A stretch of DNA of 64,000 nucleotides. Source: an uncultured Nitrososphaeraceae archaeon (GTDB lineage: Archaea; Thermoproteota; Nitrososphaeria; Nitrososphaerales; Nitrososphaeraceae). The translations under genes and the position numbers were made by a program. The notes under the pieces are model-generated. The model had not been told where the DNA came from and did not search any database. It saw only the letters and a list, made by a program, of their open reading frames with translations. The stretch covers positions 1-64,000 of the forward strand of contig CAWIMJ010000012.1 of assembly GCA_963837175.1 (NCBI GenBank), written 5' to 3'. Within the stretch, counting starts at the first letter, position 1; the number at the start of each line of letters is the position of its first letter. This document shows, piece by piece, positions 38,197-41,137 of this stretch.

Positions 38197-38601
38197 TCAC
38201 TCTGCTCCAAGTAATCCTAATAGATCAAATTCTTCTGATGGTTTAGACTTTATTTCTGCGATTGAAATCCAATAGCCATCTGGATCCTCAATTATTGCAT
38301 GTTTGCCAAAAGATTCATTCTTTGGTTCCTTGACGAACTTGACTTTCTTTTCTTGTAGTTGCTTAGCAGTGGACTCAAGGTCACTAACCATGAAACCCAC
38401 TAATATTCCCATACCACTTTTCATTTTATCCTTGGCCTTCTTTGCTGGATGCAAAGCTAATGTTGTGTCTCTGTTAAAGAATTCCACCCAATCAGGAGAC
38501 TTTGTTTTGATAGGCAAGCCAAGTATATCTTCATAATATTTTACAGAAGCGTCTAGATCGGATACCAAGAGAATTATTGTACCAACTTTTCTAAACAACA
38601 A
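38197..38601 (-). CDS. VOC/glyoxalase family protein
   Basis: VSDLDASVKYYEDILGL, FMVSDL and EDPDGYWISIAE motifs. Confidence 0.9.
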   Translation of the reverse strand: MLFRKVGTIILLVSDLDASVKYYEDILGLPIKTKSPDWVEFFNRDTTLALHPAKKAKDKMKSGMGILVGFMVSDLESTAKQLQEKKVKFVKEPKNESFGKHAIIEDPDGYWISIAEIKSKPSEEFDLLGLLGAE

Positions 38602-38730
38602 TCTACAATTACACTATGAGAATTCTCTATATATTAAGAATATGATCCCATTAGATTAAAAATACCACATTATAACAAAAAGAAATTTATGATCAATAAA
38701 AAAGTTATACTATTTAATATGTAAATTTAT

Positions 38731-38864
38731 CCCTATAGGTTTAGCGAGATCCACATATCCTTATGCAGAAATATGGTTCCCTCACCTACCCTACAAGGTT
38801 TTCTGTACACTACTAAGATTCTCAGTAAGTCTTACCCTACTTCGTTTCCGTTTCGCGTACAGAT
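38731..38864 (-). ncRNA. Putative structured non-coding RNA of unknown family
   Basis: Locally GC-rich island; two long stems with several G-U pairs on the minus strand; TTAATATAG TATA-like box about 22-30 nt upstream. Confidence 0.6.
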
Positions 38865-39631
38865 AGAATTAATATTCACTTAAGACTATATTAACATTGT
38901 AGATAATATTTCTATAACAATCGGTTCTGACAAAATTAATAAGATGATTAGTCATCATTCATTCAAATATATCGTTATTTATCACTAAGAACGCAATATC
39001 GAACGCAAACTGGAATTAAAGCTCAATAACTACCTAATAATTTGAGATAATGATCAATATTAATATACAGATGTATTCAAACAATAATCATAACTATAAT
39101 ATTATTCAAATCGTCATGAACAAGGCTACTAAACAAGTTGATTGGCGAGATTAAATTATATGAACTATTGGTTATGGTATTTATAATCACTATTACATTG
39201 ATGACACTTTCAAATTAAGCCAACCACCCAATACAATTAAGAGATATTCAATATTTAAAGAAATTATCGAGGGCTATCGTTAAGGGATAAATATACAGAC
39301 ATCCCTACTCTATGAATACAAAAATGTTGTATCTTTTATTTCTCCTCCTCAAAAAGAAAGCATAAAGATATCTGAAAAATCAGGCTCTGATGAAAATACT
39401 AAGGTTCAAGAATTATAGTGGACCAAAGATTCTGTAATAAGTTAGATTTACATCTTAATACAAATGTCACATAATGACTCAAGTTTGTAGAATAGTCCAG
39501 TTGTTGCATACAGTACTAATAATATCTAGATAAAATAATGATAGATTTACATTACACAATAAGAAAAGGTATAAAGAAGTAAAAAATACGAGGTATAGTA
39601 ATACATATGCATAGGAGGAAGAATTGTTCTG

Positions 39632-41137
39632 ATGGATAAGGTATTATCATCCAGCGATAATAATAAGTGCGCATTATGTGGCAAAATATTACCATTAACT
39701 AATCAGGACAAATTCGACACAAGTAAAGAAGAATTAATTATTGATGGAATTCTTTATCGTTTTGACGCAAAAGATTGCGCTAACATGTTTAAACGTTTTA
39801 GGAGTGTATATGGTAATAAATTTAGCGAACTTCTAGGTCTAGAACAGTATATTTCTGATCCTTTTTGGAATAAAGTAATTCCTAGTGAACAAGAGATTAG
39901 TGAAATTGAAAAAGAAGCAACTGCAAAATCAGAAGATACTATACTACAGATTATCCGAGATCCTATTGAAGTACAGAAACTTGGCTTTGAACTTATTAGA
40001 TCTGCCAATGAGGAAGTATTGATAATATTTTCAACTGCTAATGCATTCCACAGACAAGAACGTATTGGAGGGATTCAATTGTTAAGGGAGGTAATCCCAA
40101 CAAAAAGAGAACTGAATATTAGAATCCTGACTCCATCAGATGAGAGAATAAAAGAAACCTCTTCAGAATTACAACATCAACTAAAAAAAGTTGAAGTTAG
40201 ACATGTAGAAGAATCGCTACAAACAAAGGTCACAGTTTTAGTTGTGGATAGAAAATACTCATTGGCTTTAGAACTCAAAGATGATACGAAGGATTCTGTA
40301 CATGAGGCGATAGGACTTGCTACTTATTCTAATAGTAAATCAACTGTAATATCTTATGTATCAATATTTGAAAGTCTTTGGAAACAAGTAGAGCTAATTG
40401 AACAGGTAACTAAGCTTATTGAAAAATCAAAAGATGAAGAAAAGATGCATAAAGAATTTATCAATATAGCTGCTCACGAATTAAGATCTCCTATTCAACC
40501 TATAGTTGGATTAGCTGAAATCCTTAGATCTAGAAAAGAAATAGAAGTTGTAAAGCAGGAGGAATTACTATCAATTATTATCAGAAATGCAAAAAGGCTG
40601 AAGGAACTTACAGAGAATATTTTAGATGTTACGAGAATTGAAAATCAGTCGCTAAAGCTACATAAGGAGTTAGTCGATATAGATGATTTGGTGGCTAATG
40701 CATTAGAAGACATTAAAACTCAAACAGATTATAAACAGAATATAAAATTAATATATAATGATTCTAAAAAAGAATCTCCTCTATTTGTAGAAGCAGACAG
40801 AGGAAGATTAACTCAAGTTATTTCCAATTTACTTAGTAATGCAATTAAATTTACCAAAGAAGGTACGATAACAGTAATTACAGAAGAAAAAAGAAGCAAT
40901 AATATCGATTTATTAATAATTAGAGTTAAGGATAATGGCACTGGTATTAATGAAGATATTATGCCTATATTATTCGAAAAATTCGCAACAAGATCAGAAA
41001 AAGGTATGGGATTAGGTCTTTTTGTATCCAAAAACATAATTGAAGCCCATGGTGGCAGAATATGGGCTGAAAATAATGCTGATGGAGAAAAAGGAGCTAC
41101 ATTTACATTTAGTCTACCCTTATTATCAACCAAATAA
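39632..41137 (+). CDS. Soluble sensor histidine kinase with N-terminal TRASH/YHS-like Cys motif
   Basis: CALCG...FDAKDCA; H-box AAHELRSP; N-box NLLSNAIKFT; G1 DNGTGI; G2 GMGLGL. Confidence 0.93.
   Translation: MDKVLSSSDNNKCALCGKILPLTNQDKFDTSKEELIIDGILYRFDAKDCANMFKRFRSVYGNKFSELLGLEQYISDPFWNKVIPSEQEISEIEKEATAKSEDTILQIIRDPIEVQKLGFELIRSANEEVLIIFSTANAFHRQERIGGIQLLREVIPTKRELNIRILTPSDERIKETSSELQHQLKKVEVRHVEESLQTKVTVLVVDRKYSLALELKDDTKDSVHEAIGLATYSNSKSTVISYVSIFESLWKQVELIEQVTKLIEKSKDEEKMHKEFINIAAHELRSPIQPIVGLAEILRSRKEIEVVKQEELLSIIIRNAKRLKELTENILDVTRIENQSLKLHKELVDIDDLVANALEDIKTQTDYKQNIKLIYNDSKKESPLFVEADRGRLTQVISNLLSNAIKFTKEGTITVITEEKRSNNIDLLIIRVKDNGTGINEDIMPILFEKFATRSEKGMGLGLFVSKNIIEAHGGRIWAENNADGEKGATFTFSLPLLSTK

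Follow-up and report, generated by a model that had tools for sequence, protein, structure and literature searches.

A small two-hairpin RNA gene with its own predicted promoter in the archaeal family Nitrososphaeraceae

The minus strand of positions 38724–38864 in a 64,000-nucleotide (nt) stretch of DNA from an uncultured Nitrososphaeraceae archaeon (contig CAWIMJ010000012.1 of assembly GCA_963837175.1, positions 1 to 64,000 of the forward strand; the whole stretch is called the window here) raises two questions: does it specify a structured RNA and, if it does, does that RNA belong to the gene downstream or stand alone? An initial annotation had proposed a novel stand-alone archaeal non-coding RNA, and a conserved promoter, similarity confined to the RNA, varying neighbours, covariation and the absence of a match in Rfam all support that proposal. 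The element is very probably a real structured RNA gene. The best explanation as a whole, with a probability of roughly 0.8, is an independent, promoter-driven structured RNA of an undescribed Nitrososphaeraceae family that acts as a folded, protein-bound particle. Judged by sequence comparison, the RNA family is new and restricted to Nitrososphaeraceae. Transcription would proceed from the RNA's own TATA-box promoter (38887–38894), with the A at 38864 or a base beside it as the first, and would stop at a T run not far beyond the second hairpin; the product would measure about 141 nt, or about 165 nt if termination is at a T6 tract. The RNA folds as two irregular hairpins in tandem, with a linker of 3 nt between them. 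The folded particle may then be bound by one or more proteins at its purine-rich internal loops and act in trans as a ribonucleoprotein (RNP), scaffold or sequestering RNA.

The fold is a property of one strand. For the minus strand of 38725–38870 the minimum free energy (MFE) is −53 kcal/mol (z = −6.13), a value that none of 200 dinucleotide shuffles reached, while for the plus strand of the same stretch z is −0.58 and 52 of 200 shuffles are as good. The difference between these z values makes the structure strand-specific, which upholds both the location and the minus strand given in the initial annotation, together with its argument for that strand from G-U pairs. Read from the sequence of 38400–39200, the minus strand from 38864 to 38724 forms two hairpins in tandem. 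The element is a local peak of G+C (0.35, with 0.23–0.26 in its flanks and 0.33 in the whole window). It contains no open reading frame (ORF) of note, the sole ORF over it having 36 codons and lying on the opposite strand; antisense ORFs in homologues have differing ends and merely mirror the conservation of the RNA. The word GTAGGGTA does occur once per domain as had been remarked (minus strand 38840–38833 and 38794–38787), and the repeat is not conserved in homologues.

Covariation strongly supports selection on six helices, P1 to P6, three in each hairpin. The principal alignment, fitted to a covariance model, holds 30 sequences and excludes the unpublished genome G093. In it the six helices, 48 pairs in all, are paired in 91.0% of cells, and 33 of the 48 pairs have changed on both sides. 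No shuffle in 500 scored as high on any of five measures, and sliding the 3′ partners by 1–3 columns brought pairing down to 30–53%. With 70 distinct sequences the corresponding values are 90.8% paired and compensatory changes on both sides in 36 of the 48 pairs. Three modelled pairs are mostly unpaired and are better counted as loop members: two at the edges of P2 and one position in P4 that is C.A or U-A. Because model-fitted alignments lean towards their model, an alignment of 26 sequences was also made with MAFFT and folded with RNAalifold without the model; the same six helices emerge, with compensatory change in 27 of 37 pairs. Compensatory change in homologues was one of the tests that had been named for the original proposal, and all six helices are supported by it. 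Helices that evolve in this way show selection on the RNA itself. All column pairs were also scanned by mutual information for a pseudoknot or loop-loop contact; the scan returned lineage-correlated pairs only, with no run of adjacent Watson-Crick covariation, and there is therefore no evidence for a pseudoknot.

Invariance of 95% or more is reached by 38 columns, of which many belong to junctions. No part of the RNA is more constant than the junction words, while the helices and apical loops differ between genera (the apical loops are 46–72% conserved at several positions). Unpaired conserved words are 3–4 nt only, namely GAA, AGUA, GUA, GGAA and GGA, and none is longer than 4 nt.

Hairpin 1 runs from P1 (9 bp) through a GAA/AGUA internal loop, P2, a GAA/GAA 3×3 loop and P3 (5 bp) to a loop of 6 nt. 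The 9-bp stem UCUGUACGC/GUGUACAGA that had been proposed to close it is confirmed by covariation in the family. The interior that had been proposed is not: neither the CG-GAAA-CG tetraloop nor the UACUGAGA/UCUUAGUA hairpin (whose loop would be of just 1 nt) is conserved in the family. Instead, GGAUAC-type segments covary with AUAUCC-type segments to form P2, and GUAGG covaries with CUUAC to form P3; the domain is therefore a single long irregular hairpin. In the family all 8 modelled pairs of P2 change on both sides, the two flanking pairs being mostly unpaired, and P3 is 98.8% paired with changes on both sides in 3 of its 5 pairs. In the window copy P2 is reduced to G16-U49, G17-C48, A18-U47 and C21-G44, with two A.A mismatches in place of the A-U/U-A of the family. 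The GAA and AGUA of the P1/P2 loop are presumably the two words of a motif of the loop-E/bulged-G type. The likeness is to the loop E/sarcin-ricin (bulged-G) motif of 5S rRNA, with GAA opposite AGUA directly on the closing pair of P1; however, the exact AGUA is present in only 16 of 30 sequences, the rest of the RNA is unlike 5S rRNA and has no Rfam match, and the comparison is one of words, not of geometry. Of 67 sequences, 45 have a linker of 3 nt to hairpin 2, 21 one of 4 nt and 1 one of 20 nt; the linker reads ACA in none. [In the one exceptional copy, L055 of genome G116, it has grown to 20 nt of UAC-like repeats.]

Hairpin 2 is made up of P4 (9 bp), a GUA/RAR 3×3 loop, P5 (7 bp, G-U-rich), a GGAA/GGA purine junction and a variable P6 of about 10 bp. 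Here the initial reading stood throughout, with family covariation bearing out the 9-bp stem CCUUGUAGG/CCUAUAGGG, the GUA/AAA internal loop, the GGUGAG(G)/UCUCGCU helix and the apical CCAUAU.../...AUGUGG helix. One position of P4 is mostly C.A or U-A. P5 corresponds to two helices of the model, each 98.5% paired, and P6 is the most variable helix, 93.4% paired and with changes on both sides in 10 of 10 pairs. The window copy lacks one A of a conserved GAGA in P5, and its P5/P6 junction is one A short of the family consensus GGAA/GGA.

Table 1. Features of the RNA locus in window coordinates (RNA position 1 is window position 38864; pairing partners lie on the same strand)
Feature	Position	Strand	Particulars
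Small RNA gene	38724–38864	−	Full-length covariance-model match, 141 nt; model R1 131.3 bits, E 4e-24; model R2 114.6 bits
P1, 5′ strand	38855–38863	−	Pairs with 38802–38810, 9 bp; both-side changes in 7/9 pairs; 94.7% of cells paired (70 distinct sequences)
GAA, 5′ side of P1/P2 internal loop	38852–38854	−	GAA 25/30, AAA 5/30; second and third A invariant
P2 and everything enclosed	38816–38849	−	MFE and family covariation
GAA/GAA-type 3×3 purine loop flanking P3	38841–38843 and 38822–38824	−	3′ GAA 24/30, 5′ GAA 12/30; UGA on 3′ side in window copy
P3 and loop	38825–38840	−	38836–38840 with 38825–38829; 6-nt loop GUAAGA 38830–38835
AGUA, 3′ side of P1/P2 internal loop	38811–38814	−	AGUA 16/30, ANUA 26/30; last U 28/30, last A 30/30
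P1, 3′ strand	38802–38810	−	Covariation and RNAalifold
Linker AAA between hairpins	38799–38801	−	3 nt
P4, 5′ strand	38790–38798	−	Pairs with 38731–38739, 9 bp; 87.7% paired; both-side changes in 4/9 pairs
GUA, 5′ side of P4/P5 3×3 loop	38787–38789	−	GUA 23/30; 3′ side AAA at 38740–38742; family 3′ side GAG 16/30, AAA 10/30
P5, 5′ strand GGUGAGG	38780–38786	−	Pairs with 38743–38749, G-U-rich; both-side changes in 4/7 pairs
Purine-rich P5/P6 junction, 5′ side	38777–38779	−	3′ side is A at 38750; family GGAA 23/30 opposite GGA 22/30
P6 and apical loop	38751–38776	−	38767–38776 with 38751–38760; loop 38761–38766
P5, 3′ strand UCUCGCU	38743–38749	−	MFE and covariation
P4, 3′ strand	38731–38739	−	Covariation and RNAalifold
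TATA-like box TTAATATA	38887–38894	−	Ends 22 nt before first base of RNA; read from sequence
First T run (TTT) after P4	38723–38725	−	Candidate termination point
T6 run	38698–38703	−	Stronger candidate terminator; about 95 nt upstream of VOC start codon; read from sequence

The TATA-like box that had been noticed upstream of the RNA is a fixed feature of the family. An A/T word of this type stands at the same place, 22–23 nt before the RNA, in 30 of 30 aligned loci, GC-rich ones included, and in these it stands out from its surroundings. The archaeal TATA box is centred about 26–27 nt upstream of the start, and from this usual spacing transcription is predicted to start at or next to 38864. 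Archaeal transcription terminates at oligo-T. A run of three or more Ts follows P4 within 30 nt in 27 of 30 homologues, which is weak evidence in DNA as rich in A+T as this; the RNA probably ends at one or other of the T runs downstream of P4.

When copies from different genera, or copies at separate places in the same genome, are compared, similarity extends only from about −50 to +145 around the RNA. A first BLAST search, with a 201-nt query against 40 relatives, gave homologues in four genomes of the same genus (77–83% identity) and in three of other genera, and the matches in other genera begin at query position 36, that is window position 38865, the first base of the first stem.

Could the RNA be a cis-acting 5′ leader, a riboswitch or attenuator, of the gene that follows it? 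It lies about 125 nt upstream of, and on the same strand as, the gene at 38197–38601, which is, as had been annotated, a Glyoxalase/VOC protein gene; the T6 tract between the two could attenuate transcription, and a divergent copy in another genome (G015) also adjoins a glyoxalase gene. That gene in G015 is on the opposite strand, however, and an A/T-rich box of its own precedes the window's VOC gene, again as annotated. The window's arrangement of a divergent histidine kinase upstream and glyoxalase/VOC downstream is common to just one other genome (G003). Elsewhere the downstream gene differs, is hundreds of bases off or is on the other strand. The neighbours there, ordinary chromosomal genes, include peroxiredoxin, universal stress proteins, response regulators, transporters, methyltransferases and numerous unknowns; their distance varies, and they lie on either strand. 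Shared neighbouring protein families are limited to groups of closely related, syntenic genomes. Since the neighbouring genes vary, the RNA is not a leader or riboswitch of the VOC gene; the variable gene context largely refutes that reading, which now has very little probability.

Several features of the surroundings merit record in their own right. In the window about 765 nt of A+T-rich DNA without a sizeable ORF (38865–39631) separate the RNA promoter from the divergent histidine-kinase gene (39632–41137). In a GC-rich lineage (L052 of genome G020, L122, L130, L137, L139, L148, L162 and L166) two paralogous genes, P0002 (157 aa) and P0001 (217 aa), lie about 60 nt upstream of the RNA on the same strand; in L052 they span about 60–1130 nt upstream of the RNA copy. 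P0001 has a very basic, Lys/Arg-rich C-terminal tail, and neither protein has a Pfam match. In another genus a homologue lies upstream of the RNA on the opposite strand (L054, genome G149). Among the 151 genomes, 15 have the P0002 family, and these comprise 9 of the 24 with the RNA and 6 of the 127 without it. Because it is absent from the window's genome and often far from the RNA, and because related genomes are not independent, no functional link to the RNA is claimed. A helical protein about 180 aa long, whose sole Pfam matches (apolipoprotein/phasin-like) fall below threshold, adjoins RNA copies in two different arrangements, upstream at L104, L106, L111, L124, L133, L135, L142, L165 and L042, and downstream on the opposite strand at L109, L117 and L136.

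How widely is the RNA distributed? A covariance model built from 10 sequences (R1) finds it in 24 of 151 genomes of the family and in 9 of 18 genera, the window's genome and the unpublished G093 included, and gives no match in 127 genomes of 19 other families of the order. All sampled genomes have it in two genera (5/5 in g14 and 2/2 in g10) and part of them in two others (4/21 in g15, 3/21 in g13); genera in which no sampled genome has it include g2 (0/21), g5 (0/21), g9 (0/14) and g17 (0/11). A second model (R2), built from 30 sequences, gave a best E of 0.4 on 10 negative genomes that are 91–99% complete, one of them a single contig. A 20-nt degenerate word taken from the best-conserved segment gave 26 records in a collection of species-representative genomes. 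The 22 archaeal ones (Nitrososphaera, Nitrososphaeraceae or Thermoproteota) are all full or near-full model matches, and the 4 bacterial ones give no model match and are due to chance. The same word is in 82 metagenome stretches, and 68 of 80 loci searched there match the model at E ≤ 1e-6.

The RNA is single-copy in the window's genome, as it is in the single-contig genomes G020 and G122, while several other genomes have 3–7 diverged matches (G021 has 7, G048 has 5, and G058, G068 and G078 have 4 each). Patchy among genera and present in 3–7 copies in some, it is an accessory gene, not a core one. [Among the copies of G021 are three short forms, L030, L031 and L032, which keep the promoter, hairpin 1 and the 5′ half of hairpin 2. 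A 4-bp mini-hairpin takes the place of the P5 3′ strand and all of P6, P4 still closes, and the three have common downstream sequence of their own.]

A patchy and multi-copy distribution of this sort is what an RNA gene borne by a mobile element, or a selfish repeat, might produce. Many copies are on short contigs or near contig ends (the assemblies are fragmented), two different loci are found within one genus, one copy adjoins an rve-type transposase and others are near split family-B polymerase ORFs. However, a transposase or integrase domain lies within about 1.5 kb in only 1 of 26 loci scanned, the 20-nt diagnostic word has no match among IMG/VR viral contigs, and the gene is in single copy in the window's genome. 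Similarity does not reach beyond the promoter on one side and the RNA's 3′ end on the other, and neither shared flanks nor terminal repeats were seen, though no formal repeat search was made. The compensatory evolution of the helices, moreover, shows the RNA itself to be under selection. A mobile origin for the distribution is accordingly given a low probability. An empty site was sought in sister genomes, where synteny is scrambled and no clean insertion boundary is definable; the similarity around the kinase orthologue in G002, G005 and G001 ends at window position 39530. [Near one copy in G021 (L069, contig C10) a family-B DNA polymerase split in two ORFs and Rad51/RadA-like fragments lie 1–3 kb from the RNA, and a second copy of the polymerase piece is near the RNA copy L029. 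These pieces could be broken genes, inteins or a degraded element.]

Is it an RNA of a known class? The initial annotation had not recognised it as tRNA, 5S, signal recognition particle (SRP) RNA, RNase P RNA or a known riboswitch, and the searches agree. Rfam 15 at gathering score has no match in the 64-kb window; at E up to 10 nothing in it overlaps the element, or stands at the RNA's position in 14 diverse homologous loci; and ARAGORN finds no tRNA or tmRNA gene in the window. No description of the RNA was found in the full-text literature, supplementary transcriptome tables, which could list it, being outside the scope of that search. Passages of PMC13475601 mention only the SRP and RNase P RNAs of Nitrososphaera viennensis.

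The class that it most calls to mind by its hairpin plan is that of the archaeal double-hairpin H/ACA small RNAs (sRNAs), guides for pseudouridylation. These are about 140 nt, with two tandem hairpins, and come from a stand-alone gene with its own promoter; each hairpin has a 9-bp lower stem, an internal loop, an upper stem of 7–8 bp, a G.A-rich loop and a distal stem-loop. The RNA is of matching size and plan, and its P1 and P4, each of 9 bp, have the basal stem of about 9 bp that marks H/ACA guides. However, in 67 full-length distinct sequences no hairpin is followed by ACA (ANA stands after hairpin 1 in 32 of them and after hairpin 2 in 9), and no canonical kink-turn (K-turn) or K-loop is seen in the register that covariation supports. 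Guide pockets, further, are larger and variable, whereas the 3×4 and 3×3 internal loops of this RNA, with 3–4 nt per side, are near-invariant and too small and constant to serve as such. The RNA is thus like the H/ACA sRNAs without being a member of them. C/D box sRNAs have a C box, RUGAUGA, and a D box, CUGA, near their ends. This class was considered and rejected: none of the 67 sequences has a C box, and CUGA, present somewhere in 39 of them, has no conserved terminal place. Nor does any Rfam snoRNA family match the element. With neither ACA box nor C box the RNA is not a guide of either type, and a guide function, H/ACA or otherwise snoRNA-like, is very improbable. [A C-box-like word, AUGAUGA, does occur nearby on the minus strand, at 38935–38965, as a weak, chance-level match to a C/D snoRNA model (E 7.7), with no D box seen downstream.]

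The tandem-purine loops GAA/GAA and GGAA/GGA are present, and in the register that covariation supports they have no 3-nt bulge. An alternative register, which would supply the 3-nt bulge of a K-turn, conflicts with the covarying pairs of P5 and was rejected. Two side-by-side helix-loop-helix domains with invariant purine-rich internal loops also recall the hairpin ribozyme, in which two such domains dock, and the RNA might in that case cleave itself. The likeness is one of general resemblance; no Rfam ribozyme matches at E up to 10, and no covariation points to a loop-loop or pseudoknot contact. Self-cleavage is therefore as poorly favoured as a guide function.

What, then, might the RNA do? 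If the gene is real, binding of protein, as an RNP, scaffold or sequestering RNA, is the mode put foremost, at somewhat short of even chances; an antisense regulator, the next mode named, is rather unlikely, and all remaining modes taken together are only slightly less so. Protein binding is favoured over antisense action because the invariant bases are in purine-rich internal loops and not in a single-stranded seed, while helices and apical loops vary. Varying helices combined with invariant non-canonical loops are typical of RNAs read by proteins or tertiary contacts, and not of antisense regulators. The GAA/AGUA loop would stack on P1, and the other loops could form tandem sheared G.A pairs. 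In its manner of working, though not by descent, the RNA may be compared with bacterial Y RNAs and 6S RNA: a stand-alone gene, a conserved fold, invariant internal loops and covarying helices. Y RNAs are also patchily distributed. There is no homology to either in sequence or structure, and this RNA lacks a terminal stem joining its 5′ and 3′ ends.

The most serious competitor to protein binding is a trans-acting antisense sRNA, which would pair with mRNA through the conserved 5′ half of hairpin 2 (the CCUCGUAGGGUAGGUGAGAGGAAC-type segment) or through a loop, its paralogues serving dosage or differential regulation. Archaeal trans-acting sRNAs with paralogues, such as those of Methanosarcina, have their own promoter, are about 100–200 nt long and in some lineages have several paralogues per genome. 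This RNA likewise has a stand-alone gene with its own promoter, and diverged paralogues in the five multi-copy genomes listed above, and some copies have histidine kinases or response regulators close by. Sequence conservation is highest in the 5′ strand of P4/P5, which is kept in the short forms of G021, where it has no pairing partner. It is this strong conservation, even in short forms, together with the paralogue families, that keeps the antisense reading alive. The conserved segment is, however, paired in the covariation-supported fold, and no conserved unpaired stretch exceeds 4 nt, so that a conserved single-stranded seed is wanting; the apical loops vary between genera. Typical antisense sRNAs are, besides, much less structured and less deeply conserved than this RNA. 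No target was found, no target search having been made. On balance an antisense role is rather improbable.

Several points weigh against an independent RNA working as a protein-bound particle. Model-fitted alignments and related sequences cause the shuffle control to overstate significance, an effect mitigated by the MAFFT/RNAalifold folding and the slid controls. The window's own copy, with its weakened P2, has a model score that is among the lower ones in close relatives (131 as compared with 141–153 bits) and could be a decaying copy. In the covariation-supported register the purine loops misfit the canonical K-turn, with a bulge of 1 nt and not 3. No partner protein was found, no systematic search for one having been made. 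Regulatory sRNAs, too, can hold their seed inside a helix, and the missing single-stranded seed does not exclude antisense action. Lastly, four soil metatranscriptomes cover the VOC gene (4/4) but not the RNA of the window's organism. Altogether 14 soil metatranscriptome runs contain 5–10% of the words of the surrounding 10 kb; since these runs are kept as contigs, and since libraries usually lose small RNAs, absence from them says little either way. [One 261-nt contig (run X3, record 8) matches 38781–38817 and carries a homologue of the genus g14 type, its unmatched ends looking like those of a copy from another genus. Its start lies within the RNA and its other end some 150 nt beyond it, so that neither a discrete transcript nor the lack of one can be read from the contig.]

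For the biology of these organisms the more specific proposal, tentative as it is, would be that the RNA is the subunit of a lineage-specific, accessory, gene-amplified archaeal ribonucleoprotein of soil ammonia oxidisers; this is possible and rather doubtful. On that proposal the four invariant purine-rich loops would dock proteins, for instance a binder of L7Ae/L30e type or one like a ribosomal protein, and the RNA would scaffold or sequester the bound protein much as bacterial Y RNA or 6S RNA does. To our knowledge few archaea-specific structured non-coding RNAs are known, and we know of none for the soil ammonia oxidisers that drive nitrification, nor did the literature searches turn one up. 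Six covarying helices, a promoter placed on the sequence and upwards of 70 distinct natural variants are enough for a family of Rfam grade, and the family gives a precise construct for experiments. That the gene is accessory and amplified suggests that it serves adaptation and not housekeeping, and the discovery of a protein partner would establish a new archaeal RNP.

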